From an uncultured Thermococci archaeon (GTDB taxonomy: Archaea > Methanobacteriota_B > Thermococci > Thermococcales > Thermococcaceae): a DNA stretch of 38,356 bases. A program made the translations under genes and the position numbers. Numbering within the stretch: position 1 is the first letter of the stretch; each line of letters begins with the position of its first letter. Below the pieces are notes generated by a model, which was given only the letters and a program-made list of their open reading frames with translations, made no database searches and had not been told where the DNA came from. This document shows positions 2,620-32,089 of this stretch, piece after piece. The stretch spans positions 1 through 38,356 of the forward strand of contig CAZAPD010000033.1 in the NCBI GenBank assembly GCA_964487115.1, given 5' to 3'.

Positions 2620-5759
<3,140 letters not shown>

Positions 5760-5811
5760 ACATGCTTATAAATGGTTAAATTTTATGCAAAAGAAAGTAA
5801 AGGTGATTGGC

Positions 5812-6735
5812 ATGTGGGAGAGATTCATAGATGAAAAGGTAAATGAAGTTAAGGAAAAGGTTGGGGATGGAAAGGCGATTATAGCTTTATCAGGAGGGGT
5901 TGACAGCTCAACGTGTGCAGTTTTGGCCCACAAAGCTATCGGTGATAAGCTCTATGCCGTCTTCGTTAATACAGGCTTCTTGAGGAAGGGAGAGCCGGAA
6001 TTCGTCATAGAGACATTCAGGAACGAGTTTGGCATAAACCTCATCTACGTCGACGCTCAGGAGCGCTTCTTTGAAGCGTTGAAGGGAGTGACAGACCCGG
6101 AGGAGAAGCGCAAGATAATCGGGAAAGTTTTCATAGACGTCTTTGAAGAGGTTGCCAATGAAATAAATGCTGACTTCCTAATTCAAGGCACCATAGCTCC
6201 GGACTGGATTGAAAGCCAAGGAAAGATAAAGAGCCACCACAACGTTGGTGGTCTGCCTGAGAGACTAAACTTGGAGTTAATTGAGCCGCTGAGGGATTTA
6301 TATAAAGATGAGGTTAGGGAAGTTGCTAAAGAACTTGGCCTTCCAGAGAGAATATACAGCAGGATGCCGTTCCCGGGGCCGGGCTTGGCTGTGCGCGTGC
6401 TTGGTGAGGTCACGCCCGAGAAGGTTGCGATCGTTAGAGAGGCCAACGCTATAGTTGAGGAGGAAATTGAGAAGGCTAAGCTAAAGCCGTGGCAGGCCTT
6501 TGCCGTCCTCTTAGGGGTTAAGACCGTCGGCGTGCAGGGAGACATAAGGGCTTACAAGGAAACAATAGCCGTTCGCGTAGTGGAGAGCCTTGACGGAATG
6601 ACTGCCAACGCTATGAATGTGCCTTTTGAAGTGCTACAGAAGATTGCCTTCAGGATAACGAGCGAGATCCCCGAGGTTGGAAGGGTGCTCTACGACATAA
6701 CAAACAAGCCTCCAGCGACGATTGAGTTTGAGTGA
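5812..6735 (+). CDS. guaAB: GMP synthase subunit B (ATP pyrophosphatase domain)
   Basis: PP-loop [36 protein letters not shown] and a C-terminal [23 protein letters not shown] precedes ATG 5812. Confidence 0.97.
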
Positions 6736-6778
6736 ATTTCGATACTTTTATCAATTTTTAAAGTGAGATACCATTGGG

Positions 6779-6979
6779 GTGAAAGAGGTGGAGGTTATAG
6801 AAGTCGTGTATGAAAACGGCGTTCTCAAACCCCTGAAAAAGCTCAACCTTAAAGAGGGTGAGAAACTCAAAATTAAAATAATCACTGACAACATAGCAGA
6901 CTTCATCAGGAGTCTTGGGGGGGAAATCGAAAGACCACAGAAAGATCCGCTTGAAATACTTGCCGATGTGAGGGAGTAA
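6779..6979 (+). CDS. AF2212/DUF104-like antitoxin
   Basis: 66 aa with the family signature IEVVYENGVLKPL...L.EGE. Lies 1 bp upstream of a PIN-domain gene. The start codon is uncertain. Confidence 0.85.
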   Translation: MKEVEVIEVVYENGVLKPLKKLNLKEGEKLKIKIITDNIADFIRSLGGEIERPQKDPLEILADVRE

Positions 6980-6980
6980 T

Positions 6981-7418
6981 ATGAAGTTCGTGATTGATGC
7001 ATCTCTGCTCATTGATTCATTTTCGCTCTTTGATAAATCCCGAAGAGAGCTCTCTCTAAGGGTTTTTGATGCAATTAAGGCTCACGAGCTGTATGCACCG
7101 AAGCTATGCCAAGTTGAGTTTGTGAGTGTTCTCAGGCGTTTTACACCAGAAGAGAAGGTTCGACGATTCATGAACGTGTTCGACTTCATCACCCTTGTGG
7201 GCGAGTCAGAATTCTTTGAAGATGCTCTGGAACTTTCCTTCAAAATTCATTCTCGCGCGGCGGATTCTTACTATATATCAACCTCAAAAATTCTGAATGC
7301 CATTCTTTTAACCAATGATAGAAAAATGGCAGAAAATGCAAAAAAGTCTGATGTCAAAGCTTTTTACATTCTTGAGGAATTCGAAGAGTTTTTCGAATCG
7401 CTGGAGGTGGCAGAATGA
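6981..7418 (+). CDS. vapC: VapC-like PIN-domain ribonuclease toxin
   Basis: N-terminal VIDAS, a conserved E (QVEF), RAADSYY and LLTND give the PIN acidic tetrad; 145 aa. Confidence 0.88.
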
Positions 7419-7984
7419 TAATCATAATGGACAACCACGGACAATATGTGCACAGGATTTGGCGCACTTTGAGGTATTTGGGAGTTGAGGCGAAGATAAT
7501 CCCAAACACCACACCCTTAGAGGAAATTAAAGCCATGGAGCCAAAGGGTATAATCTTCTCAGGCGGACCTGACATAGAAAGAACTGGAAACTGCAGGGCA
7601 ATCTTGGAGCATTATGATGAGTTCAACGTACCTATTTTGGGCATCTGCCTCGGCCATCAGCTCATAGCCAAGCACTTTGGAGGCAATGTTGGACGTGGTG
7701 AAAAGGCGGAATACAGCCTCGTTGAGGTGGAAATCTTGGACGAAGATGACATATTTAAGGGCCTTCCAAAGCATCTCAAAGTCTGGGAGAGTCACATGGA
7801 TGAGGTTAAAACACTTCCCAGAGACTTTGAACTTTTGGCCAAGAGTGAATTTTGCCCAATTGAGGCTATGAAACACAGAGAACTGCCGATTTATGGAATA
7901 CAGTTCCACCCAGAGGTTGCACATACCGAAAGAGGGAGCGAAATCTACAAAAATTTTGCAATGCTCTGCGGCGAGCTTGAGTAA
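7415..7984 (+). CDS. guaAA: GMP synthase subunit A (class I glutamine amidotransferase)
   Basis: SGGP oxyanion motif, GICLGHQ nucleophile elbow, WESH.DEV and QFHPEV.H triad. Confidence 0.96.
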
Positions 7985-8081: not shown

Positions 8082-8357
8082 ATGGGTTACACCATATATT
8101 TCAAGACAGAAGTATCCAAATGGAATGAACTGAAAGGGTTTCTGGTAGAGATCTGCCACAACATCGGATTTGATATCGAAGTTCGAGAGGACGAGATTAT
8201 AGTGCAACCTCAGTTTCAAAAAGTTGAACCCCTCATAATAAGGAAAAAAGGGAAAAGCTCTGTAAAGACATACGGACTCGAACCATATACCTCACTCTAC
8301 AGGCTGATTCTCTATTCTCTCGCTTTATTTGGCTCAGTTGGTATCTCAGAGGATTGA
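8082..8357 (+). CDS. Small hypothetical protein (91 aa)
   Basis: Strong RBS GGAGGTG before the ATG, AT-rich promoter-like region upstream and protein-like composition. No motif recognised. Confidence 0.65.
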   Translation: MGYTIYFKTEVSKWNELKGFLVEICHNIGFDIEVREDEIIVQPQFQKVEPLIIRKKGKSSVKTYGLEPYTSLYRLILYSLALFGSVGISED

Positions 8358-9073
8358 GTATCAAAGAAAACCTCTATTATCCTCTTCGGCACTGCACCTT
8401 TTAACATTCTCTCCTCTATGAGGAGTTTCACAATTCTGCCCTTTTCCAAGTCCCCAACTTTGTCCACCCAATAATAACCCGGTTTCACATTTGCTGCAAT
8501 ATCATCATGAACATACACTTTGACAACGTCACCTTTTATCTCCTCTACAACCCCATATGTCCAATCACGGCCGTATTTTTCTTTAAAGAACTGTCGAAAC
8601 ATAAAAACAAGTATAAAAACTACTATCAGGTATGCATAATAATAGTAAGCAACTTTTGTCATTAGTTTAAGTATGACATATCCTTCAAAAGCCAAAAATG
8701 CTATAACCGAAATTCCATAATAAAAGTATCTGTAGGGTCTGAAATCCAAGAAGAAATACTGATTATTCAGTAAAATTTTGCGGATATAAAGGAAGTATAT
8801 AACTGAAACTACGAACAACCACATAAACTTATCCTGAATAAACAGTACAATAAGAAAATCAACAAATAAATAGCACAAAAATGCAAGCTGAAGCTTTAAA
8901 CTTAAAAACTCGTGAATAGTCACGTTTTTTCTTATTATTTTCCTTAAAAATCTAAACTTTGGCGGCGCTTTTTTGGGAACTGGAAAGAGCAGCTCTTTTA
9001 ACAACAAGATTAGTTTCATTGTAATTGATTCCACTCGCTCACCGATTATATAAAAAAAATCTACTATGTTCAT
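8312..9073 (-). CDS. DUF2101-like membrane protein (4 TM segments plus C-terminal beta domain), last gene of the pilin operon
   Basis: RBS GAGGTGA before ATG 9073; four hydrophobic segments; C-terminal 'KYGRDWTYGVVEE...V.V.DDI.ANVKPG.Y'. Confidence 0.75.
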   Translation of the reverse strand: MNIVDFFYIIGERVESITMKLILLLKELLFPVPKKAPPKFRFLRKIIRKNVTIHEFLSLKLQLAFLCYLFVDFLIVLFIQDKFMWLFVVSVIYFLYIRKILLNNQYFFLDFRPYRYFYYGISVIAFLAFEGYVILKLMTKVAYYYYAYLIVVFILVFMFRQFFKEKYGRDWTYGVVEEIKGDVVKVYVHDDIAANVKPGYYWVDKVGDLEKGRIVKLLIEERMLKGAVPKRIIEVFFDTQSSEIPTEPNKARE

Positions 9074-9077
9074 GATT

Positions 9078-11513
9078 TCACCTCTGAAGCAAATCTTGGG
9101 CTCCTTGTGTTCCAAATATAGCAATGGCAGTTTGGTTATCTAGGAATAGATACACATCGGATCTATCCGGCGTATCGGAAATTCCATAAACTCTATATCC
9201 TAAGACAGTTGATGCACTTCCAAAGTACTTCTGCAAGAAGTAGTAATCCACACTGCTTTCTTTATTGGAGCTTAAATCCGTTCCTGAAACACCAATAGTA
9301 GCCAACAAATTAAGGAGATTCTGGTCATATGGATTAGGCCCCGGGACCATAAAGCTTATCAGCCCTATGGGATAGTACTGGCTTCCGTATTTAACACCCA
9401 ATTCATCCTGCAATTGATCTGCAAGTAGTACATAGGCATTATGGTTTACATCGGTTCCTTCTAAACGCTCGAAGAATGACCATCCCCCATATACCCCAAA
9501 GTAACGGTTATCCAGTATGCAGTTTATGAAGGGCTGAATATCGTAGGCTCTGGCAGGGCCCACTGTTATAACGGTCTGAACAGGTCTTTGTTCTATTTGA
9601 TTGGATATTGTGGTTGTTGGCGGAATTGAGGCATATTTGCGGACACGTATCCAGTCAATGTATCCATATCTTGTAGTTGAATCTGTATCTGCTGCAATTT
9701 GAAGATAGAATGGATTGAGAGACGGAGAAACTGCTGCTGTAAGCCACGAATCAGTATAGGAATCCCAGAATTGTATCTGGGATCCAGTGTATATAATCTC
9801 AAATTCCTGCCAAGCTGTAGAGTATATCGGACTTCCCACTGCAGGATATGAACCATATATTCTGAGAGACTTGGCATCGTATGCAGTATAATACCAAAAT
9901 CCTCCATATCCATCATACCAAGCATACAGAGCAGAATTGCTAAGCCAAGGCGTAATGTTTGTAGGTACAAGTCCAATAGTCAAATCAGTATCGTAATAAT
10001 AGTAGCCTCCCAACCGCCAAACACCTTCAATTATTACATTCGGAGAAAAGGACCTGATTGTATTTATATAGTATCTATTATTCCAATTGCCCCACATCTC
10101 AATATATCCATTCGAAACAGCATATTGGTTTGTGTTAGTTATCCATTTTGTTGTGTTCAATGATGTACCACTGAAATCATCATAGAAGTCAAACACCTTA
10201 TTTGGATCTCCCAATGTTTCCGTTCCTGTTGAGTCAAAATAAATCTCAATGGTTATTGAAGAAGCGGCTGGAATTGTCACATTAACCCATATTATTGCTT
10301 CTCTATTAAGAGTATCCCATTTTTCAACCCAGAAATTAACTGGAACACAAGTATCATATGTTATGTATATAATGGGAATATTATCCCCATCGCTGTCTGC
10401 AGTAGTGAAAAATTCATTTAGTAGAGTTAGATTTGTAACATGAGAGCTATCAATATATATTGGAACTTGGAAATTTACTAAATTTGTAGCTAGATTATTT
10501 TGGATTGTGACATTAAACCTATATCCAAGAGAAGGATAGCACCAGCTGGAGTAGGCACTGCTACTTACACTTCCAAAGACCAGAACGCCCATATCACCAT
10601 CATTAAACACATCACTTGGAGATGTCCTCCTTCCTTCCAGAGTTGTGTTAAAAATAACTGGAGCAGTTGCATTAGTGGTTTCATTTGCAAGAACATAAGC
10701 TTCGGCACCGGTACCGGGATAGCTATCACCGAAATAAATCTTGTTGCTGGCTATAGTTGTAGAAAGTTCCCCAATGACCGGAGATTGAGTACTACTCCCA
10801 TTTCCATCTAATATTTTTAAGGGTTTGTTAAATAGCTGGGGAAACGCAAACTGACACGCTTTTATAGATCTTTGATATTTTCCTCCGGTATATGCTGAGA
10901 ACATAGGATCTTCAAGATTCCGAATGTCAATTATGGAATAGGTCCATCCACTTCTTGGTATTGTTCCAGAATAAACTACATTACCGTCTTCACTGCGTAT
11001 GGTAACATTTAATATTCTGGCTTTTATAACAATTCTAAACGAGTCTAACGGTGCCACTATTATCTCTACATGGTCCGCAATTGTTGAAGAATTGGGTTGT
11101 ATAAGAAATCCCTGTCTCTTGAGCACTAAACTTATATTAGATATCCAACTTTTAATATCTTGACCTGCCATAAGTGTGGATAACCTTGGATAATTCTGTA
11201 TTGAAGGGGAGGTACTGTTTATTATCAAATCTCTGATAGTATTATTAACTTTATATGTTGAATCAATAAAATTCCCACTTACTGCAACATAATCAACAAC
11301 AGCAACAATAGCCCTCTTACCTGAAATTTCTAACGCTCGTTGAAAATCCAGTTCCAAATAAGACACCATGTCAAAAGTACTCTCAAATTGCATCCGCTCA
11401 CTTTGGGCATGGATTATCTGATAGGACACATCCTCATACGTAGCTAACAGTAACATAAGAGGTATTAAAAGCAAAATAACAGTTGAATTTATTAAAAAGG
11501 CTCTCCTTTTCAT
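9078..11513 (-). CDS. Large class III-signal (pilin-like) surface protein with an internal DUF2341 plus ConA/LamG-like module
   Basis: N-terminus MKRRA|FLINSTVILLLIPLMLLL. Internal 'NFQVPI...FWVEKWD...IIWVNV.IPA......IYF' and 'FDFYDDFSG..L...KW ... DWIRVRKY'. Confidence 0.75.
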   Translation of the reverse strand: MKRRAFLINSTVILLLIPLMLLLATYEDVSYQIIHAQSERMQFESTFDMVSYLELDFQRALEISGKRAIVAVVDYVAVSGNFIDSTYKVNNTIRDLIINSTSPSIQNYPRLSTLMAGQDIKSWISNISLVLKRQGFLIQPNSSTIADHVEIIVAPLDSFRIVIKARILNVTIRSEDGNVVYSGTIPRSGWTYSIIDIRNLEDPMFSAYTGGKYQRSIKACQFAFPQLFNKPLKILDGNGSSTQSPVIGELSTTIASNKIYFGDSYPGTGAEAYVLANETTNATAPVIFNTTLEGRRTSPSDVFNDGDMGVLVFGSVSSSAYSSWCYPSLGYRFNVTIQNNLATNLVNFQVPIYIDSSHVTNLTLLNEFFTTADSDGDNIPIIYITYDTCVPVNFWVEKWDTLNREAIIWVNVTIPAASSITIEIYFDSTGTETLGDPNKVFDFYDDFSGTSLNTTKWITNTNQYAVSNGYIEMWGNWNNRYYINTIRSFSPNVIIEGVWRLGGYYYYDTDLTIGLVPTNITPWLSNSALYAWYDGYGGFWYYTAYDAKSLRIYGSYPAVGSPIYSTAWQEFEIIYTGSQIQFWDSYTDSWLTAAVSPSLNPFYLQIAADTDSTTRYGYIDWIRVRKYASIPPTTTISNQIEQRPVQTVITVGPARAYDIQPFINCILDNRYFGVYGGWSFFERLEGTDVNHNAYVLLADQLQDELGVKYGSQYYPIGLISFMVPGPNPYDQNLLNLLATIGVSGTDLSSNKESSVDYYFLQKYFGSASTVLGYRVYGISDTPDRSDVYLFLDNQTAIAIFGTQGAQDLLQR

Positions 11514-13705
11514 CAACGCTCCCTCCAGACCCTTAATGTCATCTGGACTGGTGTAAACAATCCACTAGGAATGTTACCCATATTAGCGAATTCGATATTT
11601 ACTGTAGAAGGTAGCTCCACTTGAATTGGGTCTGTAGACGTTCCATCTCCTCCAAGATTGTTAAACAACCTTATAATTGCATCATCCACAGCATAAGTAG
11701 TTCTTCCTTGTAATAAATCTGCAGCTGTTACATTACAATATGGTGAAGTACCCGCATAGATATAATGGGGGTTTGTATCCCCAACCCAATAATATGTTAT
11801 ATTATAACCATTACATCCCCCGCGTAGTAACTTTGGGAAAACCTTTCCATAACCAGCATAAGCTTGTATTAAATACGTGAATTCACCTTGACCATTACTA
11901 GGTTGGAGATAGTAACCATATCCCAAGTCAACTGAGAGAGTATTTGTTCCAGTTGAAATCGCATTGTTCAATGGTTGAGAGTTCCAGTCAAATGTATCAG
12001 CCATGTATCCAATTTGTGCCAGATGGATAAACGGACTCGAAGGGACACAGCTGTCACCGTAACAATGTATATATGTTGGAGTTATATTCTGACTATCCAC
12101 TTCAATTTTTTGATATGGATCGGTTCCGGTATAATATAACCATGGATTTTGAATAAATGCCCAGAGAGGCTGTGTTCCATTTGGGATATCAAACGTCCAT
12201 TCAATATTGCTACAATACCCATATGAATTACAATTTGTAGCAACATAATTTGTTAAGGGTTTTGTTATGTCAACTGAATACTGGCTGAGAAGTATGTTGG
12301 ACACATAATCCAAATTGATGTATGATTGGGAGCCTATCAAATGTACCCGATAACCATTATAATAAGTATCCTTGTCTCCAATAAAGACTTTTACAACCGT
12401 TGTTTTTGCTGAAATATATCTATAATCATAACCACTGTTTTCAATAGCGGTTGAAAGAGTCGAATTATCCCAATAACATGTTTTAATTCTATTAACGCTG
12501 TCATAAGAACATGAAGTTGGATTTATAAGAATACCATCAGCGCTCGTACCAAGCATGAACCTTAGACTTATTGGCATGGTACTTGACACATTTCCCGCTG
12601 CAACCTGAATTTCCATAGAGTTTAACTTGCCCGGGACAAATAGGAATTTCCACAGTTCAATTCCATAATATGAGGAAACATCTTCCAAATAAACTTTCTT
12701 TTTTAACTGCAATGTCGTAGGTTGTGTTGTTGTGTAGTTTATTATTATACGTTGAGCTCCATCTTCTCCTCCTCTATTCACATAACCCCCAGAATACCAA
12801 CTATAGCCATAATACGGATTGTAAACCCAGACCTCAAATATATTTTCCCTATTTGGATCAAAGTTTTCTATTAAGTTACAAGTTGTATCTGTTGGGGTAT
12901 CTATGATCTCGTCATTGTATTGTACATAGTTCCATGTATAATATCCATTACATGTAACTGGATTACCATTAATAAAAAGCCGATAGTAAGAATCAGTCCA
13001 TGCAGGCTCGATAAACCACTTTATTTCTTGGATCTGAGCATCTGATGGAATATCGCCTCGTGGAATTATATATTTAATGACAACATATTCAGAACTACTG
13101 GGGGCTGCTGATTCAATATATCCGCCCCTTAGGATATAGAGATTCTCCTTACTCCCAAGTTTTGTTAAATATGCCCGTGCCATGTATCCTCTCGGCGTCT
13201 GATTGTATGCATATCCAGTTAAAGATATCGTAGAAGCTGATACATCACGGGCTTCCACATAGTTCGCACCTATTTTTGAAAGATATGGGCTGGTATAGTT
13301 ATTGATAATTAGCTGATAGTTATACCCTTTTAATGTGTTATTAAGTATATATCCAAGAATTATTTCAGCCTTATTTGTCAGGTTTGCAGAAGGATAGACT
13401 GGAGAAGCGGCCCAGTATGTTGCAGCGATTTCAAGGGGTGACATTGTAGGATTTACAAGGCTTGAATTTAATATTCCATTACTAATCCAATCTTCTATTT
13501 TTTGGGATGGCACCAAATTCTCTAACGGAGTTGTTCTCAGTAGTTCTAATACATTTTGAGCAGTATAAGCATTTTGAGAGCGTATATATGTGGAATAAAC
13601 ATTTATACTCTGGGATTGGATGGATATAATGCTAGTGACAAATATAACAACTAAAACCAGAGATAGGAGAGCATCCAATGTAAATACAAATCCTTTCCTC
13701 CTCAT
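11513..13705 (-). CDS. Large class III-signal (pilin-like) putative adhesin, rich in Tyr/Asn/Cys
   Basis: N-terminus MRRKG|FVFTLDALLSLVLVVIFV; C-terminus 'TLRVWR'; several closely spaced Cys pairs; ATGA overlap with the upstream gene. Confidence 0.75.
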   Translation of the reverse strand: MRRKGFVFTLDALLSLVLVVIFVTSIISIQSQSINVYSTYIRSQNAYTAQNVLELLRTTPLENLVPSQKIEDWISNGILNSSLVNPTMSPLEIAATYWAASPVYPSANLTNKAEIILGYILNNTLKGYNYQLIINNYTSPYLSKIGANYVEARDVSASTISLTGYAYNQTPRGYMARAYLTKLGSKENLYILRGGYIESAAPSSSEYVVIKYIIPRGDIPSDAQIQEIKWFIEPAWTDSYYRLFINGNPVTCNGYYTWNYVQYNDEIIDTPTDTTCNLIENFDPNRENIFEVWVYNPYYGYSWYSGGYVNRGGEDGAQRIIINYTTTQPTTLQLKKKVYLEDVSSYYGIELWKFLFVPGKLNSMEIQVAAGNVSSTMPISLRFMLGTSADGILINPTSCSYDSVNRIKTCYWDNSTLSTAIENSGYDYRYISAKTTVVKVFIGDKDTYYNGYRVHLIGSQSYINLDYVSNILLSQYSVDITKPLTNYVATNCNSYGYCSNIEWTFDIPNGTQPLWAFIQNPWLYYTGTDPYQKIEVDSQNITPTYIHCYGDSCVPSSPFIHLAQIGYMADTFDWNSQPLNNAISTGTNTLSVDLGYGYYLQPSNGQGEFTYLIQAYAGYGKVFPKLLRGGCNGYNITYYWVGDTNPHYIYAGTSPYCNVTAADLLQGRTTYAVDDAIIRLFNNLGGDGTSTDPIQVELPSTVNIEFANMGNIPSGLFTPVQMTLRVWRER

Positions 13706-14733
13706 GGCTCCCACATCCACAATTTTAATATGGCCGGTTCAAGTCTTGGACCAAGAATCACACCTAATCCATTTAAATCACGCATTATTACGGTCCCTGT
13801 AAAGGTATTCTCATATACCCATATATTAACGATTTTAATTGTGTTTTCAGAATTAAACTCCTCAAATAGAGAACTCCACGGAATTGCCACAGTGGTGAGA
13901 TTACCTACATAGGAAATAACACTATTATTCTCTGTAATAATTGTGGCATTTACATTAGAAGTCGCAGATTTTTTCTGAATTACCAAGGCTTTTCCCTGAT
14001 TCCCATCCAACACGGAAAATATAATATGCCCCGCTTCATTCAAAGGCACATCTATCTCAAACATCGAATATGGGGGCACATTATTTTTCAATATCCCAGA
14101 AAGAATCTCATGATGTTGTGATATGTTGACCTGAGCATAATATACCCTTCTCGCAAGGATTATGTTTTTATGCTGATATAATATCCATCTTGCATTTGAT
14201 TTTGAACTGTTTATAATACCTTCGTTGGTCACTAAAGATCCGTTTATAAAAGTTATATTAAATGTGGGCTTAGACAAGTTTGAGGCATATACATACGACA
14301 CATTCACCACCTGAACATTGAGAGGTGAAGTAGAGATAACATTGAGGTCGACACTGATGTTTGTTAAATATATATTTAGTTGAAAATTCCTGTGAGAGCT
14401 TAAGTTGAGAAGACTACTTCTTATATTAGATGAATTGATATTCTTCACAAGTGTTATTAATTTTATGTAATCATCAGCATAAGCATATTCATTGCTCCGC
14501 AATCCAATAGATTTCAAGGTTGAAACATTAAGCTCCCAATTTTCAGGTTCTCCAGGACTCTTCGTGAGCACGTCTAACATGTTATTAGCCAAATTAGCTC
14601 TATTGTACCATCCAACAAGATCTGTTATCTCCGTTGTTATCGTCTCGCTTGTATTTAAAACTACTCCAAGCACCATTATAACCAAGACCATTGATAACAG
14701 AGCATCTAATGAAAATATTTGAGCCCTTCTCAT
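13702..14733 (-). CDS. Class III-signal minor pilin-like protein (343 aa)
   Basis: MRRA|QIFSLDALLSMVLVIMVLGVV; 'LD.L..SPG.PENW' motif; C-terminal 'LKLWMW'. Confidence 0.8.
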   Translation of the reverse strand: MRRAQIFSLDALLSMVLVIMVLGVVLNTSETITTEITDLVGWYNRANLANNMLDVLTKSPGEPENWELNVSTLKSIGLRSNEYAYADDYIKLITLVKNINSSNIRSSLLNLSSHRNFQLNIYLTNISVDLNVISTSPLNVQVVNVSYVYASNLSKPTFNITFINGSLVTNEGIINSSKSNARWILYQHKNIILARRVYYAQVNISQHHEILSGILKNNVPPYSMFEIDVPLNEAGHIIFSVLDGNQGKALVIQKKSATSNVNATIITENNSVISYVGNLTTVAIPWSSLFEEFNSENTIKIVNIWVYENTFTGTVIMRDLNGLGVILGPRLEPAILKLWMWEP

Positions 14734-15209
14734 TGTATCTTCACTTCCACAATTATAATAACCTTTTTGCCGTTATAAATTAAATTATTATAAGCATCAA
14801 TCTTAGCAGAGGAGTGCTGGACAACGTATGCTCTGATAAAATTTAATATCCCATTACTAACGGCCTGTTCATTCTGTACAAACCCAGAGCTCATTATATT
14901 GACTCTAATATAAATTGTGCCATTGACTTCTGAATACTGCACATTCTTTAAATAAAGATTATATTTCATTCCTGAAGTCAGCAGTGGATTTAAATAAAAG
15001 TAGGTATCATTAGTATCTTTTACAACAACACCCATGTTGAGATAGTCACACGCAATGTCAGCAGAGGAACGAATCAGGGATATAATCGAAGTACTAATAT
15101 TACTACTGAGATAATTTGGGATTACAACCGCTACCCCAAACAGTATTATGCTTAGTATTAACAAAAGTTCCAGTGAAGTCTGCGCTTTTCTATGTCCTAA
15201 AGGTAACAT
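14730..15209 (-). CDS. Class III-signal pilin-like protein
   Basis: RKA|QTSLELLLILSIILFGVAVV (QxSxE motif). Start is 15209 or 15218. Confidence 0.8.
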   Translation of the reverse strand: MLPLGHRKAQTSLELLLILSIILFGVAVVIPNYLSSNISTSIISLIRSSADIACDYLNMGVVVKDTNDTYFYLNPLLTSGMKYNLYLKNVQYSEVNGTIYIRVNIMSSGFVQNEQAVSNGILNFIRAYVVQHSSAKIDAYNNLIYNGKKVIIIVEVKIQ

Positions 15210-15627
15210 AGATGACATCCCCCGTTCTATTAACTTCAATCCAAAATGATGTGACAGTACTATTTAATACAACACGAGAATCAACATAAATCGGAACGGT
15301 GATATTCTGAACAACATAATATCGAACATTATCTATAGTAGCATTGATCTGAAGAACATTTAGTGTGGAGTTTAACGTTACAATTATGTTATCTCCCGCA
15401 TTCAAGGTAAATGGTACTTGCTTCCTTAAAGAATATCCCTCCCCAATTGAATAGGCTTTTATAACAGTGTCCCTTAAATCAATCGAGAAAATCTTCAGTC
15501 GAGCTGTTACATCAAGAGTCTGTGTGTAGGTAATCTGCTCATCAGCAGTGTATATTATATTTAACATTGTTATAGCTATGAGAGTTACAGCGAATAATAA
15601 ATCTAAGCTAAGCTGCCCACGTTTCAT
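15190..15627 (-). CDS. Class III-signal pilin-like protein
   Basis: MKRG|QLSLDLLFAVTLIAITMLNII. Confidence 0.8.
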   Translation of the reverse strand: MKRGQLSLDLLFAVTLIAITMLNIIYTADEQITYTQTLDVTARLKIFSIDLRDTVIKAYSIGEGYSLRKQVPFTLNAGDNIIVTLNSTLNVLQINATIDNVRYYVVQNITVPIYVDSRVVLNSTVTSFWIEVNRTGDVIYVTFRT

Positions 15628-15628
15628 C

Positions 15629-16249
15629 TCAACCACCCGGGTTGATGTTTATATACAAATATCCCACAGTAGAATTAAAGCTCCAGATTTCGCCTGAGTC
15701 AGGATTCCACTCAACTATAACCCGCATGGTTGAGTTGAGGTCGGAGGGTGGTATTCTCAAACCATAAACTGTTGTTCCATTTATTAGGATAGAACTCCCA
15801 AATGTCGCATCCCAGATATTTGAATTGTTATACAAGACAGCTGGATATAACGAAGGAGACCAAAACACATTTTTATCAGGTCCATTGAAATTTAAGACTG
15901 GAGTTGTAGAATTAATAACCGTTATATTTACTCCTCTATCATACGTTACAAAGATATAAGGACTATTTAATCCATATGCCTTTCTGAGCATTCCTGCATC
16001 CTTGAGATAAGTCAGTTTAACATATGCAGTAGCCTTTGATCCGGGTCCCTGAGCATAAACTTGAGAAATTGTGTTCGATATAATATTAGCAAAGTTCTTC
16101 TCTTCAAGGCTTATTTGAATTATAAGCGTCTGTTGAGAAGCAGAATTATTACTGAACGAAATGTTATTGATAGAATACACTAACATTACAACAAGAATCG
16201 CAAAGACCAGCATAAATTCAAGGGAAACTTGACCTCTACGCCCATACAT
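15629..16249 (-). CDS. Class III-signal type IV pilin (QxSxE type)
   Basis: MYGRRG|QVSLEFMLVFAILVVMLVY is a canonical cleavage site with +1 Q and +5 E; also 'VYAQGPGSK'. Confidence 0.87.
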   Translation of the reverse strand: MYGRRGQVSLEFMLVFAILVVMLVYSINNISFSNNSASQQTLIIQISLEEKNFANIISNTISQVYAQGPGSKATAYVKLTYLKDAGMLRKAYGLNSPYIFVTYDRGVNITVINSTTPVLNFNGPDKNVFWSPSLYPAVLYNNSNIWDATFGSSILINGTTVYGLRIPPSDLNSTMRVIVEWNPDSGEIWSFNSTVGYLYININPGG

Positions 16250-16252
16250 CTT

Positions 16253-16915
16253 CTAACCCTCTATTGAATGATTAGAAGAGGTCATATTTAACAGTTGCCT
16301 CTCTCCATCCAAAGAAACAATCGCATACCTCTGATTCCTGATCTTTTTAGTTGAGATACCAAAGTAGTCATAATTGAATATCTTAAATTTATAGCCGGTT
16401 GGATTAAGTGCATACCTCTTAACAAGTTCTCCCATTTCATCTATAAAAAACTGAGAAAGCTCGTAATATATCAAATCAAGTCTATTCTTCTGGTAATCTT
16501 TCATATAAAACAGCAAAGGTAAATATGCTACCCCTATAATGATCCATGGGATTCCGGTAGCTAATGTTCCGATGCCAGTAATAAGAATTATTATTCCAAA
16601 GACAAAATAGGCAATCTTAACAATTCTTTTTATCTTTTTAGCCTCATAGACCTTGTTCTCCCATATGTCAAGAAGCATGGGGTTATAGAAGTCAAAAGCC
16701 GTGTGCCTTTTTCCCTTTGCAATTCGTTGCCTGATAAGCTCATCCCAATCATCCTCGTAGTAAATAACCTCCCCTTTATTCCTCGCTCTCTCCGCATCCA
16801 GGGAAGATATAATCCTTATTATATCCTCGGCGCTTTCATGAGCAATATGAGAGTAGACCCCCTTCTCATCAAGATCCAAAGCAACCTCCACTGAATCCCT
16901 CACCTGCTCAGCCAT
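16253..16915 (-). CDS. Hypothetical membrane protein (central 2-TM hairpin)
   Basis: Charged ~100-aa N-terminal domain, then hydrophobic IAYFVFGIIILITGIG and IPWIIIGVAYLPLLFY. Start overlaps the end of the cetZ-like gene. Confidence 0.75.
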   Translation of the reverse strand: MAEQVRDSVEVALDLDEKGVYSHIAHESAEDIIRIISSLDAERARNKGEVIYYEDDWDELIRQRIAKGKRHTAFDFYNPMLLDIWENKVYEAKKIKRIVKIAYFVFGIIILITGIGTLATGIPWIIIGVAYLPLLFYMKDYQKNRLDLIYYELSQFFIDEMGELVKRYALNPTGYKFKIFNYDYFGISTKKIRNQRYAIVSLDGERQLLNMTSSNHSIEG

Positions 16916-18002
16916 CTACCTCACCTGGATATATATCATCAAAGTCCGGCAAACCTTCAAGGAGTTCGGTTTTTCTTATTTCAGCCTCCTTCTTCGCTTC
17001 CATAAACGACTGAGCATACTTCTTGGCAGTTATTACAATGTTCTCTATGCTCTTACTTTCATAAATCCCGCTCAGCAGAGTAACTACTTCTATATCCCTT
17101 TCCCTTGGGTCTGGATAGAATCCACGGAAAATTTGCTTTCCTCTTATCTTCTTTGTCAGATAATCGAGAGCTTCGAATATCTCACTCGCCTTAAGAACCT
17201 CAGGCGGTCCATGAATTGCAACAAGTCCATAGAGGGCAGATTCAATGTTAGCTTCCAGATAAAGCCCTTCAGATTCAAATGATTTTATTATGAGTTTGGA
17301 TAGATTTCTTATCCTGCTGGCATCAGCTTTTGCATAACCCACTGTGGCAAAGCTTCCAAATGCTTTGAGAACAAACTTCAAATCGCTGGCATCAAGAGTT
17401 TGTTCTCCGGGAATATCAATAAGAGCCAGAAGCGAGGCTATTCTCTCCACAATAGTGTAGTTTATCTTTTCATATGCCCTTGTTATATCCTCCCCGCTTT
17501 CCTTGAGCTTGTTGTTGTCTATAGCTATTATGGAGTCTGCAACTTTGGAGAGCTTGTCTATAGTTATCGCTGCATTTATTGTAGGTCTTATCCCCTCCTC
17601 CCTGAGTGGCAGTGCACCGATGGCAACGACGAGGGATTCTGGATACTCTTCCTTTAACGCCTCAGCTAAAACAGGCGTTCCACCAGCTCCTGTACCTCCA
17701 CCAAAGCCAAATGTTAAGAAGAAAATGTCAACATCCTCATAACCAATCAGGGAGTTTATCTTTCTCATGACAAGCGGCAGGTCCCTTTTCATAGCTTCTC
17801 TTCCAAGCACAGGATTAGCGTTTACTCCTTTACCTCCAGTTAGGGATTCTCCTATCAATATTCTTCTTTCATGCGGTATGTGCTTTAGATATTCGAGATC
17901 CCCTCGGGATGTGTTTACTGCCAGTGCCTCAAAGTCGACCAGTGCAAATATATCAGCTATTTTAGTTCCACTCTGTCCTATTCCTATTATCAGTGCCCTC
18001 AT
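16908..18002 (-). CDS. cetZ: Tubulin/FtsZ-superfamily GTPase, CetZ-like (non-canonical FtsZ)
   Basis: GGGTGAG tubulin signature. The N-terminal loop is GIGQSGTKIA (GQ type, unlike FtsZ GGGG/GAG). Also G.GVNANP..G and IDNN. The T7 loop is TLDASD instead of FtsZ NxDFAD, and there is no FtsZ N-terminal extension. Confidence 0.85.
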   Translation of the reverse strand: MRALIIGIGQSGTKIADIFALVDFEALAVNTSRGDLEYLKHIPHERRILIGESLTGGKGVNANPVLGREAMKRDLPLVMRKINSLIGYEDVDIFFLTFGFGGGTGAGGTPVLAEALKEEYPESLVVAIGALPLREEGIRPTINAAITIDKLSKVADSIIAIDNNKLKESGEDITRAYEKINYTIVERIASLLALIDIPGEQTLDASDLKFVLKAFGSFATVGYAKADASRIRNLSKLIIKSFESEGLYLEANIESALYGLVAIHGPPEVLKASEIFEALDYLTKKIRGKQIFRGFYPDPRERDIEVVTLLSGIYESKSIENIVITAKKYAQSFMEAKKEAEIRKTELLEGLPDFDDIYPGEVDG

Positions 18003-18010
18003 TTATTTAA

Positions 18011-20257
18011 TCACCCCACCAACATAGCCTCCATTTCCCGAAGCTCTACCTTCCCATCCCTATTTTTATCAGAATATTTTATTACTAAATAGTCGTTGTG
18101 AAGATAGCGTATAAATCCAGACTCAAACAGAGTTCTAACGGCACTTGTGCCCAAGGCACCACTATAAAGGACGAACAACACGTGGCCTTTTTCAGTTACT
18201 CCAGGTATAATGACAATGGTATATTCCGTGCTGTACTTTCTACCCTCAATGCTTATATAGCTCCCGTTAACTTCGTAGGAGATATAGGGGTTGTATGCAT
18301 CTATGTTGAATGTATTAAACGTGCCCAACGCAATATAGTTTCCCTCTCCAACAGTACTTTCATTGGAAATAGTAGCGTTTGTACCAAAAAATTCATGAAT
18401 TGCCTGTGTTACAACCTCAGCAGTGGCACTATCATTATTTGGAGCTATTATCTTAAACTCCTCCTTGGACAAAGCAATAATCAGATCATACAAACTTACA
18501 TGGGGAATAAACTTGAGTTTTATTAGATATGGAACAGCAAGGCCAATATCAACTGGATTATCCAATTCAAGCTTGTCCTCAAGGGTCCAGTTCAAAAGCA
18601 GGTTCGTTGTGTCAGAAGTGAAATCATAACCAAACTTCTGAAGTAGATTCGTTATCCGCACTGTTGTTTCAATCTTCATGTTATTATAACCCTTCCGATA
18701 ACTCCAACTACCATCCGGATTACGCTGGGAGATAATCCATTTGATATAAGGCTGTAACTCCTTCTTGGAAGATATTGGATACAAAGCATTTAGCACGTTC
18801 ATTGTTGTTATCACGTCTGGTATTGTCATGTAGGAGTAGAAATAACCTGATATGTAAGTTCCCCAACCATGTTTTGATAAAGAGAGAAGCCATGATTTTG
18901 CTCTTTGAATATCTGAATCGTTTGCAGGAACACCAAGTTCTAAGAGTGTAGCAACAGCAAATGCGGTATTAATGGGTTGAGGTCCTATAACCTCACTTCC
19001 CCATAGACCGGATTGCAGCTTCACACTTTTTATCGCATCAATAGCTTCTTTCCTCTCCTTATCAGTGAGAGCATTAAACTCCACAAGAGTTTTTATTAGA
19101 TAGTAGTATGATTCAGTTGCCGTATGTAGTTCCCTAAGTCTCAGGGTTTCCTCATTAAAAGCATTTTTCGTCCAATTTAGACCTTTTAATATGTTAGAGG
19201 TTTTTAAATAACAGCTCTGAAGACCTTTTAAGGCGTAATATGTGCTCTTAGGGTCAGACCCATGGAGTGTTGGATAACCCCATCCCCCATCAGAATTTTG
19301 AATTACCTTTAGATACACGCAAAGGCTTGAATACGGAGTCTGGGGTCGTTCTTCGGGGTTTAAGAAGGATCCTGTGATAGATAGTGCCATTAACGCATAA
19401 GCGGATGTTGTAATGGTGTCAGGAGAAGAAAACATCCACGTCTGAGTGTTCCAGAAAAACAAACTGTTACCTTTTTTCTCATTTTCTAAGAGAAGCAGGG
19501 CCTTAGCCATATCAAAATCAAAGGGTTCATACAGTGTTAAAGCATAGGTCAAAATCGCTCTTGCACGGGTGGTGAGAGTTTCATTGAATAATTTTTCTTT
19601 TAATCTTTGAATGGTTCTATTATCAACAGGGTAATCAATGCTTTTATATGCAATAAGTTTTAAACCAAATGCTTCATTCTCTGGTAATTCACAGGAGGAA
19701 ATATTATTCAAATATCCAACCGAGTTCTCTATAACGGAATTATACCATGTATATCCAAGCTCTCCCAATGCCCACACTGCCATTATGGTTGGGTAGCATT
19801 CCTCTTTTGTGTTTGAAACATATCCCCATCCAACTTCACCCTTACTATTTAACAGAAACATCTTTCCCTTTTCAATAGCATCTAATATTTTAGAATATAT
19901 GTTCTGTTGATACATGTATGAACCCTTTATTTTAGCCAGAGCTATGAGAGCATACGCAGTATCGACAACATTGCTGGGACTCCGCGGATAATACCCCCAA
20001 CCTCCATCAGAGTTTTGGTCTTGAAGAAGTTTTTGGGTAAGTTCGTCCAACACAGGTTTCAGATCAATTTCTGTTTTGTCTTTGACAGAATTTAGGGCCA
20101 TTAAAGTCAAACTTAATTCTTGGATTCTTGAGATTTTATCTGAGTTCATGGCTAAAAACTTTGCTGAGCCTTCAAGAAGAGGAACTGCTCCTACATTTAC
20201 ATAAGGGATAATCATGATTGCTACGATTATAAAGACAATTACTCTTTTCCTTTTCAT
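18011..20257 (-). CDS. Secreted prenyltransferase/squalene-oxidase-repeat (alpha/alpha toroid) protein
   Basis: Sec-type signal MKRKRVIVFIIVAIMIIPYVNVGA. Repeats QNSDGGWG (twice), GWGY, SGLWG, HGWG and RNPDGSWS, mostly followed by T(A)xA helices. RBS GAGGTG. Confidence 0.85.
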   Translation of the reverse strand: MKRKRVIVFIIVAIMIIPYVNVGAVPLLEGSAKFLAMNSDKISRIQELSLTLMALNSVKDKTEIDLKPVLDELTQKLLQDQNSDGGWGYYPRSPSNVVDTAYALIALAKIKGSYMYQQNIYSKILDAIEKGKMFLLNSKGEVGWGYVSNTKEECYPTIMAVWALGELGYTWYNSVIENSVGYLNNISSCELPENEAFGLKLIAYKSIDYPVDNRTIQRLKEKLFNETLTTRARAILTYALTLYEPFDFDMAKALLLLENEKKGNSLFFWNTQTWMFSSPDTITTSAYALMALSITGSFLNPEERPQTPYSSLCVYLKVIQNSDGGWGYPTLHGSDPKSTYYALKGLQSCYLKTSNILKGLNWTKNAFNEETLRLRELHTATESYYYLIKTLVEFNALTDKERKEAIDAIKSVKLQSGLWGSEVIGPQPINTAFAVATLLELGVPANDSDIQRAKSWLLSLSKHGWGTYISGYFYSYMTIPDVITTMNVLNALYPISSKKELQPYIKWIISQRNPDGSWSYRKGYNNMKIETTVRITNLLQKFGYDFTSDTTNLLLNWTLEDKLELDNPVDIGLAVPYLIKLKFIPHVSLYDLIIALSKEEFKIIAPNNDSATAEVVTQAIHEFFGTNATISNESTVGEGNYIALGTFNTFNIDAYNPYISYEVNGSYISIEGRKYSTEYTIVIIPGVTEKGHVLFVLYSGALGTSAVRTLFESGFIRYLHNDYLVIKYSDKNRDGKVELREMEAMLVG

Positions 20258-21442: not shown

Positions 21443-22294
21443 TTAACGTGGAAATATAGACCTATAATGAAACGCACCAATTTTTGGATAACTCTGTGAT
21501 TTGACAACCGGCTGTGGTTTTTTTAAGACCATCACATAACTATTCTGATGTCCAACACTCCATAGCCCACTTTCACCAACCCGAGAGGCTGAAATATCAA
21601 CAGAATAACCATACGTCCCCGATACGGGATACCAGACTTTGAACATAAGTTCTTTTTCGGAATGGGGTGGTATAATAATCTTCCCGTGCCTATGAATGGA
21701 ACCGTAGGTATTTCCTATCGCCGCATCAAACTTATAATGCACAAGAGCAGAAATTGAGTTAGCATTACCCACAATTATCCTCACTGCTAAATTCTTCCCC
21801 TCATAGATGGTCTTATTGCTCCTGACGGAGAATGTTATTCTCCTGTTGCTAAATTCAACGGGAAGAAGTATATCTCTGCCATAATTAAGCTTTAGTCTAT
21901 GTATAGCAGAGCAATACAGGAATGAAGTATCAGTGCATGTTCTATACTGGGCAGAGACAATACCGGCAACATGGACAAGGCCATCCCTATCAACATCATT
22001 GATTTTTGAACTTGTAATTTCCCATATTCTCAAGGTATGGTCCGAGGAGTTCCCGTTTAAGAGTTCAGGTTGGCTCAATACGAAGTTATTGAATCCAGTG
22101 CCGTTAACCTGTATCTTGATATCCTTGAATATGTACGAATCTGTAGGAATCTCTATTTCCAGGGAATAAATGACAGAATTTGAATCGTAATTATCAATAA
22201 AAACATTTATTGCTGGAGAATTCACTGCCTTTGTCTGTGTGGAAAAGGAAAGTGTCATCAGAAGAATGCAGATGAAAACAACCATTTTTCTCAT
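21443..22294 (-). CDS. Hypothetical secreted beta-rich protein (283 aa)
   Basis: RBS GGGGTGA before ATG 22294; signal peptide MRKMVVFICILLMTLSFSTQTKA; the C-terminal half resembles an Ig/CARDB-like strand pattern. Confidence 0.65.
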   Translation of the reverse strand: MRKMVVFICILLMTLSFSTQTKAVNSPAINVFIDNYDSNSVIYSLEIEIPTDSYIFKDIKIQVNGTGFNNFVLSQPELLNGNSSDHTLRIWEITSSKINDVDRDGLVHVAGIVSAQYRTCTDTSFLYCSAIHRLKLNYGRDILLPVEFSNRRITFSVRSNKTIYEGKNLAVRIIVGNANSISALVHYKFDAAIGNTYGSIHRHGKIIIPPHSEKELMFKVWYPVSGTYGYSVDISASRVGESGLWSVGHQNSYVMVLKKPQPVVKSQSYPKIGAFHYRSIFPR

Positions 22295-22555
22295 TCGAAT
22301 CACCCCCATTTTTACGGTATTTAGTATTTTTATTTTTAAATTTTTTGGAGTAACTATGAATGATATTTTATCGCCGAAAAATATTTCGGCAATCGCCAAA
22401 AAGTTTAAAAAGGGTTGTTGAATATGCATATCCATGTTACATGTAAAACCAGCAATAAGCATCAAACACCGCGAATTTAAATTTAATATCCCGGAAGAGG
22501 AGTACGAAACTCCGGAAAAGCCGAGGGTTAGGTTTCTTCAGGAAGTTAAGAGAGT

Positions 22556-23189: not shown

Positions 23190-23834
23190 TCATGCCTCTG
23201 CTCTGGCTTCAATTAAAGCTTTAACCCTCTTTAGCCTGAAGAAGTTTTCTCTTTCCATTTCATCAAGGCGCTGTTTTATGAACTTAACTGTTTCCTCCAT
23301 CCTCGGAATTATGATATATTCCAGTGCATTAACCCTTCTTTTGGTCTTCTCAATTTCGTTTGCAAGCCTCTTCAGTGTCTCCTCGACCTCCGCAAGACGT
23401 ACTGCAAGCTCAAGTACTTCCTCAAATTTTTCTGCTGCTGAATCAACCCGTGGAGAGCTGGAAACAAACGCATATCCCCTCTCATCCGGTCTTCTCTGAA
23501 AGCTCTCAGCCTCTATGAGAGGAACAGGCACTCCCATTATGTTTCTTCTCTTTATCTCGACTTCTTTGTTCGGCTTGATACTCAGACCGATCTCTCTAAG
23601 CTTTAAAATGCCAACATCAATCTCTGCCAAACGCAGTATGTCAAAGGCCTCCACCATCTTGTTGTTCAATTCCTTTCTTAGGTTTAAGGCTTCATCATAA
23701 ATTGTGAAGAACTCCATGATCAGGGCATCCTGTTTATCCTTTAGGAGCTTGTGGCCTTTTTTAGCTAACTGGATTCTCTTCCTGAGTTTTAGGAGTTCCA
23801 TACGAGTAGGTTTGACGTTTAGTATGTTTGGCAT
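23190..23834 (-). CDS. atpD: A1Ao ATP synthase subunit D
   Basis: [25 protein letters not shown] and TKRRVNALE. Confidence 0.96.
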
Positions 23835-23853
23835 TGGGATCACCTAAAGGAGC

Positions 23854-25245
23854 TCAGTGCTCCCTCTTCCTGTACTTCGGGTGATATTTGAGTATATACT
23901 CCTTCCTGACACGCTTGAGCTCGCTCTCAGGAAGTGTTGCTAAAAGTTCCCAGCCGAGGTCGAGGGTTTCCTCGATACTCCTGTCCTCATCATACGCCTG
24001 AGCAACGAATTCTTTCTCGAATCTATCTGCGAACTTGAGATACTTCCTGTCGGTCTCGCTCAGAGCTTCTTCACCGACGACTGCAACGAGGTCTCTCAGA
24101 GAACGTCCCTCAGCATAAGCCGCATAGAGCTGCTGGGCAAGCTGTGGATGCTCTTCCCTCGTCCTCCCCTTCCCTATACCATCCTTCATTAGTCTTGAGA
24201 GTGATGGCAAGACATCAATCGGCGGATAGATACCCTTTCTATGCAGATCTCTGCTGAGAACTATCTGGCCCTCTGTGATGTAGCCAGTTAAATCGGGAAT
24301 CGGATGTGTTATATCATCGTCGGGCATCGTCAGGATGGGCATTTGAGTGATGCTCCCATTCTTTCCTCTAACTCTACCTGCCCTCTCATAGATTGTCGCA
24401 AGGTCTGTATAGAGGTAGCCCGGATAACCTCTTCTCCCCGGAACCTCTTCTCTCGCTGCTGAAATTTCTCTTAAAGCCTCACAATAGTTAGTCATGTCGG
24501 TGAGTATAACTAAGACTTGCATATCGTAGTCGAACGCCAAATATTCAGCAACTGTCAGTGCCATTCTCGGCGTAATTATACGCTCGATGGCTGGGTCGTC
24601 CGCCAAATTCAGGAAAAGCACAGCCCTTTCAATTGCTCCCGTTTCCTCAAAGCTCTTTTTGAAGAAGTTTGCTTCCTCATACGTTATACCCATTGCAGCA
24701 AAGACGACCGCAAACTGCTCCTCCTCACCTAAAACCTTAGCTTGCCTTGCAATCTGTGCTGCGAGCATGTTGTGAGGCAAACCTGAGCCACTGAAGATTG
24801 GTAGCTTCTGTCCTCTGACGAGAGTGTTCATGCCATCTATGGCCGAAACACCTGTCTGAATGAAGTCCCTCGGATAAGCTCTTGCAACTGGATTGAGAGG
24901 GGCACCATGCACATCCCTTCTGTCCTCAGGGATTATCTCAGGCCCACCATCTATAGGCCTTCCTGTCCCATTGAAGACTCTTCCAAGCATGTCCATTGAA
25001 ACAGGAACCTTGAGGGTCTCACCTGTGAAGCGCACGCGGGTTGTTTTAACATCTAAATCACGAGTTCCCTCGAAGACCTGAACTATCGCCATGTCTTCTC
25101 TGGCTTCAAGAACTTGTCCCTTTCTCTTCTCTCCACCTTCGGTTTCTATCTCAACGACTTCACCATAAGCGACGCCTTTAACACCCTGCACGATCATGAG
25201 CGGCCCGTAAATCTTGCTAACGGTTGAATACTCCATTCCCGGCAT
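23854..25245 (-). CDS. atpB: A1Ao ATP synthase subunit B
   Basis: [30 protein letters not shown] and [12 protein letters not shown]. Confidence 0.98.
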
Positions 25246-25250
25246 CAGCA

Positions 25251-27008: not shown

Positions 27009-27014
27009 TTTCCT

Positions 27015-27323
27015 TCACCTCTTTAACTCAACACCTATGGCTTTTCTTACAATTTCCCTAAGCTGTTCCTCACCGAAGCGTGAGCCAGTTTTATCAGGGA
27101 TTTGAAGGATTATCGGAAATGCAACTGCAGGAATTTCAATCCTCCGGGCTAATTTTTCTGTTATAAGTATGATACCGACGTCCTGCCTGTCAACGAGCTC
27201 ATTAATCTTGTTCTTAGCTCTCTCCGTGTCAAGCTCACTTTCTCCAAACGCATAGACCTCATGAGCACCCGCAAGTTTAAAACCCAATGCAGTGTCCTTG
27301 TCACCCATGACAACAATTTTCAT
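27015..27323 (-). CDS. atpF: A1Ao ATP synthase subunit F
   Basis: [19 protein letters not shown] ... VRKAIGV. Confidence 0.95.
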
Positions 27324-28429: not shown

Positions 28430-28434
28430 CTTGA

Positions 28435-29046: not shown

Positions 29047-29083
29047 TGTTTCTCCTCCCATTATGGATTAAAGGAGAGCTGGG

Positions 29084-29575
<492 letters not shown>

Positions 29576-29586
29576 TTAACACCTCC

Positions 29587-31575: not shown

Positions 31576-31576
31576 T

Positions 31577-31888: not shown

Positions 31889-31945
31889 GATGAGCCCCCC
31901 AATGAATGTGAAAATAGATACACCAACTTTGGCTTCCTTAATCAC

Positions 31946-31961
31946 CTTAAATAGTTTATGG
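31946..31961 (-). promoter_or_regulatory. Putative BRE/TATA promoter of the atp operon
   Basis: Minus strand CCATAAAC-TATTTAAG about 58 nt upstream of the atpH ATG. Confidence 0.45.
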
Positions 31962-32089
31962 TAAAGCATGGGGCACAGGGAAAGTTGCAGTATTCCTTAG
32001 ATAATGCCCCCCAATAGCAATAAAGACCTGTTGTGAGCAAACATCCTGAGAATATGAACAAAAGTAAGAATAAAAAGCAGAGTGAATTC

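Follow-up and report, generated by a model that had tools for sequence, protein, structure and literature searches.

A conserved ten-gene cluster in the Thermococcales, which sets a CetZ-like tubulin-family GTPase beside six pilin-like proteins, raises the question of what surface machine these genes build and whether the GTPase has a part in it. Here we examine the cluster at positions 8312-20257, on the minus strand, of a 38,356-nt stretch of DNA from an uncultured Thermococci archaeon (the window). The locus as such is already known: it is the Thermococcales clade-1, or system-1 (Epd-type), pilus locus with cetZ and a gene labelled 'squalene cyclase'. Our best explanation, to which we assign a probability of about 0.5 as a whole, is that the locus encodes the tip module of a DNA-capturing and adhering pilus, next to a separate unit of a toroid protein, CetZ and a two-helix membrane protein (2-TM), in which a membrane-tethered CetZ would fix the assembly site. 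Directly seen are the genes, the signals and two conserved promoter boxes and, in other parts of the genome, an ATPase, two platforms, EppA, a TctA-like gene and three small pilins. Of the components of this explanation, the assignment of the six pilin-like genes and the DUF2101 gene to the minor-pilin/tip module of a system-1 type IV pilus is almost certain, a function of this pilus in DNA uptake is probable by analogy, and an action of CetZ on it, again by analogy, falls just short of even odds.

The pilin-like genes and the scattered pilus machinery

With the starts best supported by ribosome-binding sites used for coordinates and junctions, the list of open reading frames (ORFs) in the window contains ten minus-strand ORFs at this locus, encoding in gene order proteins of 748, 364, 220, 206, 145, 159, 343, 730, 811 and 253 aa. 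This agrees with the original prediction, made from the sequence alone, of a run from a toroid through CetZ, a 2-TM protein, three small pilins and three larger pilin-like proteins to a DUF2101-like protein. Overlaps or gaps of 8 bp or less had been claimed for the junctions, and the nine measured consist of gaps of 8, 3, 1 and 4 nt (range 1-8) and overlaps of 8, 20, 4, 4 and 1 nt (range 1-20). The last gene (8312-9073) indeed encodes a membrane protein that matches Pfam DUF2101 (E 8e-74); the other Pfam names in the locus are Tubulin and CetZ_C, the Prenyltrans/SQHop toroid repeats and DUF2341. For comparison, the loci of 40 relatives were taken, complete genomes being the source of most; since one is cut off by a contig edge, counts are on 39.

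Each of the six pilin-like proteins has, as had been proposed, a K/R-G/A signal followed by a hydrophobic helix. They comprise three minor pilins of 206 aa (15629-16249; RRG/QVSLE, the slash marking the predicted mature start), 145 aa (15190-15627; KRG/QLSLD) and 159 aa (14730-15209; RKA/QTSLE), and three larger proteins of 343 aa (13702-14733; RRA/QIFSLD), 730 aa (11513-13705; RKG/FVFTLD) and 811 aa (9078-11513; RRA/FLINS). The signal pattern had eight matches over the ORFs of the genome, six of them in this locus, and it missed two small pilins elsewhere; Pfam Class_IIIsignal was over its cut-off in the 206-aa pilin only (28.1 bits) and under it in the 159-aa pilin. The types of mature start are retained in relatives, and the 206-aa pilin has a QxSxE-type start in all 39 relatives' loci (one reads QVTLE). 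Within the window, QxSxE is found in two of the six proteins and Q at +1 in four, and none has the full QXSXE(XXXL) motif with L at +9, a pilin motif with Q at +1 (PMC2910488). The earlier comparison with the QxSxE pilins of the Epd/EppA pilus holds for the type of locus, but the motif itself is confined to two of the six, the others starting with QLSLD, QIFSLD, FVFTLD and FLINS.

The large pilin-like proteins are sequon-rich and differ by their central inserts. The N-terminal 70 residues of the 343-aa protein are homologous to those of the 730-aa protein (hhalign 96.9%), and its relatives range from 331 to 834 aa through changes in the central insert. Atlas feature matches of the 730-aa protein are unnamed archaeal clusters, and its structural matches reach TM values of at most 0.30 by query. 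The 811-aa family combines a conserved N- and C-terminal core with a variable insert, the proteins of relatives being 359-1143 aa long, and 29 of 37 members carry DUF2341; the window protein has no acidic residue at +5 or +6. In the predicted model of a 359-aa homologue, a 78-residue N-terminal helix precedes an alpha/beta domain, an architecture that would suit a type IV pilin; with this model Foldseek returned no match and a wide fold search gave only long-helix rows with Z < 6. We infer that the 811-aa protein is a candidate tip adhesin. DUF2341 proteins have been proposed as tip adhesins (Makarova 2016, PMC4858521).

The rest of the machinery lies elsewhere in the genome. Two secretion ATPases are over cut-off, one in the archaellum cluster (contig C30) and one at C10, where a T2SSE ATPase gene is followed by two T2SSF platform (TadC) genes, a layout that matches the clade-1 rows of the table in PMC4858521 as regards gene order. 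The ATPase gene of this system-1 cluster (C10:8933-11515) carries an intein (Pfam Intein_splicing). At C36 there is one A24 peptidase with Arc_PepC (EppA-type, long form; 378 aa, eight predicted transmembrane (TM) segments), with a small pilin directly upstream; this pilin and two at C122 are the three Class_IIIsignal ORFs of about 55-59 aa, which may be the major pilins. At C62 a TctA-like gene, for a putative DNA transporter, is preceded by one for a 1-TM protein that has no Pfam OB match and a weak, third-ranked match to an OB-fold profile (E 5e-4).

A mechanism can be proposed from these parts. EppA would cleave the pilin-like signals, and the 811-aa protein would start the filament at its tip, together with the other five pilin-like proteins; it is placed as the starter because it is without an acidic +5 residue, and an E5-less tip pilin is comparable to bacterial GspK/PilX-type subunits. 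The C10 ATPase and platforms would add the 55-59-aa major pilins beneath the tip, the variable inserts (DUF2341) would determine what the tip binds, and captured DNA would be handed to the OB-fold/TctA-like pair at C62. CetZ, in turn, would bind the 2-TM protein at its conserved cytoplasmic domain and position the machine, perhaps at the archaellar pole.

The closest known counterpart is the Thermococcus kodakarensis locus TK1661-TK1670, described in PMC4858521 with the same ten-gene order (squalene-cyclase-like protein, FtsZ3/CetZ, 2-TM protein, three pilins, three large surface proteins and a 4-TM protein); the differences there are only in insert sizes, TK1664 having about 830 aa against 343 in the window and TK1662 about 372 aa against 811. 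[quoted passage not shown] Brown and Duggin 2023 (PMC9856176) describe every one of 15 Thermococcales cetZ regions as pili-associated; a scaffold role is proposed there and the function is called unknown. Thermococcales are also said to encode an Epd pilus in PMC13705601, the main text of which does not contain 'TctA'. The two promoters described below are not mentioned in the clade-1 locus account of PMC4858521, and the account of the cetZ region in PMC9856176 gives neither a promoter analysis nor a link to DNA uptake.

Two promoters and the place of CetZ

The CetZ protein (16908-18002; arCOG02202) exceeds the cut-offs of both Pfam Tubulin and CetZ_C and is far under the FtsZ equivalog cut-off, and its GTPase motifs (GGGTG, D204 and D207) and C-terminal LPDF are invariant in 34 sequences. 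Its best sequence matches in the Protein Data Bank are 4b46, 4b45 and 3zid, listed as FtsZ, which we take to be CetZ structures. Haloarchaeal CetZ1 and CetZ2 are thus its closest solved-structure matches by sequence; unlike these, Thermococcales CetZ is single-copy and linked to clade 1 rather than 4F, and it is described as the deepest-branching CetZ group, equipped with some FtsZ-like catalytic residues (PMC9856176). The gene that directly follows cetZ in all 39 loci encodes the 220-aa 2-TM protein (16253-16915; arCOG05790-type, predicted TM 101-136), in which column identity is 0.78 over residues 1-95 against 0.30 in the TM part; its model (predicted local distance difference test score 83) has no fold match at E <= 0.001. 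Because it always stands after cetZ and has a highly conserved N-terminal domain, the 2-TM protein is a natural candidate for the anchor of CetZ at the membrane. Since Thermococcales cocci are polarised, with a polar cap (PMC10117864), it would be no surprise if CetZ had a positioning role in them. Three things speak for a link of CetZ to the pilus: the adjacency of cetZ, the 2-TM gene and the first pilins given below, the place of haloarchaeal cetZ2 beside a different pilus locus (PMC9856176), and the need for a MinD-like positioning ATPase in Methanococcus maripaludis transformation (PMC10133366).

A CetZ query had matches in 81 of 81 genomes of the order, with a close orthologue in 78 family members and in the genome under study, and weak matches in the two genomes of the other family. 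Of the 39 loci, 35 have a gene at every one of the ten positions, and in all 39 cetZ stands side by side with the 2-TM gene and the first two pilin genes, including those without the large genes or the toroid. The 159-aa pilin was matched in 37 loci, an unassigned ORF of the same size taking its place in the other two; the three large pilin-like genes are present in 38, and DUF2101 and the toroid in 37 each, DUF2101 being found in 91 of 94 family genomes. In one genome (G012) the three large genes are found at another place together with DUF2101, and in another (G019) DUF2101 alone is relocated; published Pyrococcus furiosus COM1 rows show a similarly split locus (PMC4858521 Table S4). Mean identity is 86.5% for CetZ, 59.5% for the 2-TM protein and 35-49% for the others.

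We identified two conserved promoter boxes. The original prediction placed all ten genes behind one BRE/TATA (B recognition element and TATA box), and this head promoter (P1, 20292-20309, minus strand) is backed by conservation: a motif of its type was matched ahead of the toroid gene in 28 of 38 loci and at none of 305 internal gene starts, and in the two loci without a toroid it stands ahead of cetZ, counts made with a pattern written only after the sequences had been viewed. P1 is not the sole promoter, however, as a second box (P2, TTAAATA, 16285-16291, minus strand) lies within the 3' end of the 2-TM gene. In 38 of 39 loci the first pilin has ahead of it a P2-type box, in most cases TTAAAT and often straddling the 2-TM stop codon, against 1-7 of 36-40 for six other genes. 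In differential RNA sequencing of T. kodakarensis (PMC4247193, file 8), primary transcription start sites (TSSs) are given 12 nt before TK1670 and 18 nt before TK1667, and the table has no primary starts for TK1669 and TK1668; primary TSS calls for TK1664 and TK1663 fall within the upstream genes, and many internal starts are listed too. From the first count column in the supplementary data of that paper, the heads of which were not seen, we calculated reads per kb of 60 for TK1669, 68 for TK1668, 281 for TK1667, 655 for TK1664 and 104 for TK1661; reads are present for all six locus genes looked up, denser from TK1667 to TK1664 and less so again at TK1661. The conserved second box and the matching T. 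kodakarensis start site make it likely that toroid-cetZ-2TM and the pilins are separate transcription units; since a scan of the window listed no terminator-like site between the 2-TM gene and the first pilin, read-through is possible. Separate transcription of cetZ, which the original prediction had named as evidence against itself, is thus partly borne out, the pilins likely having a promoter of their own. The two-promoter layout shows how deletions could be made non-polar, so as to tell the role of CetZ from that of the pilus, and the locus offers named, deletable candidates, TK1661-TK1670, for the uptake machinery and for the job of the single CetZ.

DNA uptake, adhesion and rival explanations

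The case for DNA uptake draws on genetics in Methanococcus maripaludis and on gene neighbourhoods. Transformation of M. maripaludis is lost on insertion into eppA, into epdA, C, F, H, I, J, K or L, into a DUF2341 gene, or into either the OB-fold or the TctA-like gene; deletions of the OB-fold and TctA-like genes confirm the loss, and a MinD-like positioning ATPase is also required (PMC10133366); the same source names T. kodakarensis and P. furiosus COM1 as naturally competent. Like the system described here, the M. maripaludis Epd pilus has EppA, Q+1 pilins (four of the six in the window), two platform genes, a small major pilin, a DUF2341 protein and an unlinked OB-fold/TctA pair, whose OB-fold member has a mere candidate as its counterpart at C62, and it is needed for adhesion (PMC13705601) as well as transformation; unlike it, eppA and epdF lie within the pilin operon, and no cetZ, 2-TM or toroid gene is described there. 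Our literature search, with most subscription papers outside it, found no paper joining TctA, archaea, type IV pili and DPANN, and none assigning the uptake machinery of T. kodakarensis or P. furiosus COM1.

The neighbourhood evidence comes from a DPANN phylum, that of genome G133, in which 121 genomes were searched. TctA is over cut-off in 94 of them and Arc_PepC matches in 110; 89 genomes have both, on one contig in 79, and in 68 eppA is found no more than 3.5 kb upstream of tctA, both genes on one strand. A scan with the signal-motif pattern yielded 21 loci, none of them from Methanococcales; in one of these, L068, system-1 genes enclose the TctA gene. Homologue searches returned Thermococcales-type proteins. 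Gene order was read in detail for 20 loci picked from the 68 (L081-L100) and for L068, and in most of them it is ATPase, two platforms, small pilins, EppA, two pilins, a small ORF and TctA, with a QxSxD-led pilin series in 14. As in the Thermococcales system, these clusters have EppA, two platforms, QGAIEY-type small pilins, a similar signal series and, in some loci, DUF2101; unlike it, they hold everything in one place with TctA, and their pilins are short and without large inserts. Three of six ORFs at one cluster position match Pfam DUF2101 (profile match 98.4%, E 1e-14), which at the level of sequence profiles firmly links the two systems, and three of the six tested ORFs before TctA are Pfam OB-folds. 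Within the family Thermococcaceae, TctA and EppA are each present in 93 of 94 genomes; in a class search, TctA, Arc_PepC and DUF2101 were found in none of the 17 genomes of another family (f4), all of one genus. The cluster in L068 (7459-17859) and those in L081-L100 also enclose, beside the OB-fold and TctA-like genes, a JAB-domain gene, which follows tctA in most, and several ATPases of this phylum exceed 1000 aa and may carry inteins too.

A number of observations weigh against our explanation. On the side of DNA uptake, tctA is on another contig than the locus, and TctA is not tied to this pilus, since 16 of 17 genomes from three families with no Arc_PepC match have it too. Past the signal, the three small window pilins match their DPANN positional counterparts weakly (E 7e-4, 7e-3 and 0.025), profile comparison found no homology of the three large pilin-like proteins to DPANN pilins past the signal region, and whole-proteome searches with the DPANN pilin profiles did not return the window pilins. 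The M. maripaludis pilins belong to other arCOGs (PMC4858521), and the likeness drawn to that pilus is one of described parts. On the side of CetZ, CetZ_C was found in none of 61 genomes of the DPANN phylum with the same pilus class nor in the Methanocaldococcus jannaschii control, which makes CetZ at most a lineage-specific addition to the pilus class and its positioning role an inference. The likely promoter of the pilins speaks against the CetZ link, as does the roughly fourfold rise in read density at TK1667 (PMC4247193 supplement). The synteny expected by the original prediction was found in all 39 loci, yet it is weak evidence for coupling: a convergent, unrelated 91-aa gene (orf91) is also kept in all 39 and TYW1 in 31, and because such neighbours are equally kept and kin are not independent, synteny alone is no proof. 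In the literature searched, finally, we found no functional test of any Thermococcales gene of the locus; the original prediction had pointed to similar loci from comparative genomics that are not known to be functionally characterised, and such loci are indeed in print (PMC4858521, PMC9856176).

Much of this evidence would suit a pilin module as described beside a toroid-cetZ-2TM trio that is an independent envelope or cell-shape and polarity unit, kept adjacent since the pilin promoter runs into the tail of the 2-TM gene. The second promoter, often across the 2-TM stop codon, the separate primary TSS and higher pilin read density in T. kodakarensis, the DPANN system-1 clusters without CetZ and the equal synteny of orf91 all agree with such independence, which we rate as a serious contender at somewhat below even odds. 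It sits less well with the possible read-through, with the small pilins that remained with cetZ where the locus split and with haloarchaeal cetZ2, which lies beside a different pilus locus (PMC9856176). The original prediction, for its part, saw a cytoskeleton-positioned adhesive pilus or contact apparatus. A filament for adhesion, biofilm or cell contact with no part in DNA uptake would account for the large, variable, sequon-rich tip proteins with DUF2341 inserts, for the tip-adhesin proposal cited above, for the description of the Epd pilus as adhesive (PMC13705601) and for the unlinked tctA. We consider it unlikely in this exclusive form, as M. maripaludis transformation requires the Epd pilus including a DUF2341 gene and system-1 genes cluster with tctA in 68 of 89 DPANN-phylum genomes; neighbourhoods and M. 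maripaludis genetics are at least as indicative of DNA uptake, with which adhesion is compatible.

Two further alternatives involve the toroid, a predicted secreted alpha/alpha-toroid protein of 748 aa (18011-20257; arCOG03396-type) with an N-terminal hydrophobic stretch and a mean identity of 36%. DxDD is the catalytic motif of squalene-hopene cyclase; it is not in the window protein and occurs in 2 of 38 relatives, at unrelated positions. With neither this motif nor a full-length family match, assignment as a squalene-hopene cyclase by motif was rejected. The toroid is likely, as judged from its sequence, a surface protein. A true squalene or terpene cyclase that remodels lipids for the apparatus is scarcely credible: the arCOG label SqhC (PMC4858521 table) and NCBIfam cyclase matches suggest it, but those matches are all far under cut-off, and the absent DxDD, the secretion signal and the low identity argue otherwise. 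A short pseudopilus by which large surface proteins, the toroid among them, are moved or anchored across the S-layer, with no external filament, would fit a cluster that holds a secreted protein and five distinct pilins, each non-canonical or large; it is improbable given three small stand-alone major-pilin candidates and two genomes (G021 and G009) that keep all pilins and in which a single-protein query did not find the toroid. An Atlas lead (0.77) to an S-layer C-terminal domain at the end of the toroid found no support, with hhalign at 4% and no Pfam match. At its C-terminus is a sub-threshold EF-hand-like loop, with EF-hand matches under cut-off in 12 of 33.

If the preferred explanation of a DNA-capturing, adhering pilus with a CetZ-fixed assembly site is extended, the Thermococcales uptake pilus might descend, in scattered form, from an ancestral competence operon of archaea, made up of a system-1 pilus, DUF2101, an OB-fold protein and a TctA-like channel, that is still intact in the DPANN phylum, with a tubulin-family polymer, anchored by the 2-TM protein, placing the pilus at the pole. 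We offer this as a speculation that is doubtful in its entirety.

Neighbouring genes

The conserved 91-aa ORF (8082-8357, plus strand) converges on the end of the DUF2101 gene and overlaps it, and stands at the locus end in all 39 relatives, even where the distal genes have moved. Upstream of the toroid, a 340-aa ORF (21443-22465, minus strand) lies between a HemK-like gene and TYW1; it has no Pfam match, and because it has no match in the 40 related loci it is, on sequence comparison, likely a recent insertion. In eight loci (L017-L019, L032, L034-L036 and L038) a gene of about 695 aa takes the place of TYW1, and published P. furiosus rows have a secreted DUF11 protein at the equivalent place (PMC4858521). 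The contig starts on the plus strand with a short ORF with a weak macroglobulin-domain match and then a 677-aa M1 peptidase (13-2472), followed on the same strand by genes for the synthesis of purines and GMP, which flank a PIN-like ORF (2620-7984). On the minus strand, positions 23190-35255 hold an A-type ATP synthase operon, TrkA and SecD/SecF.

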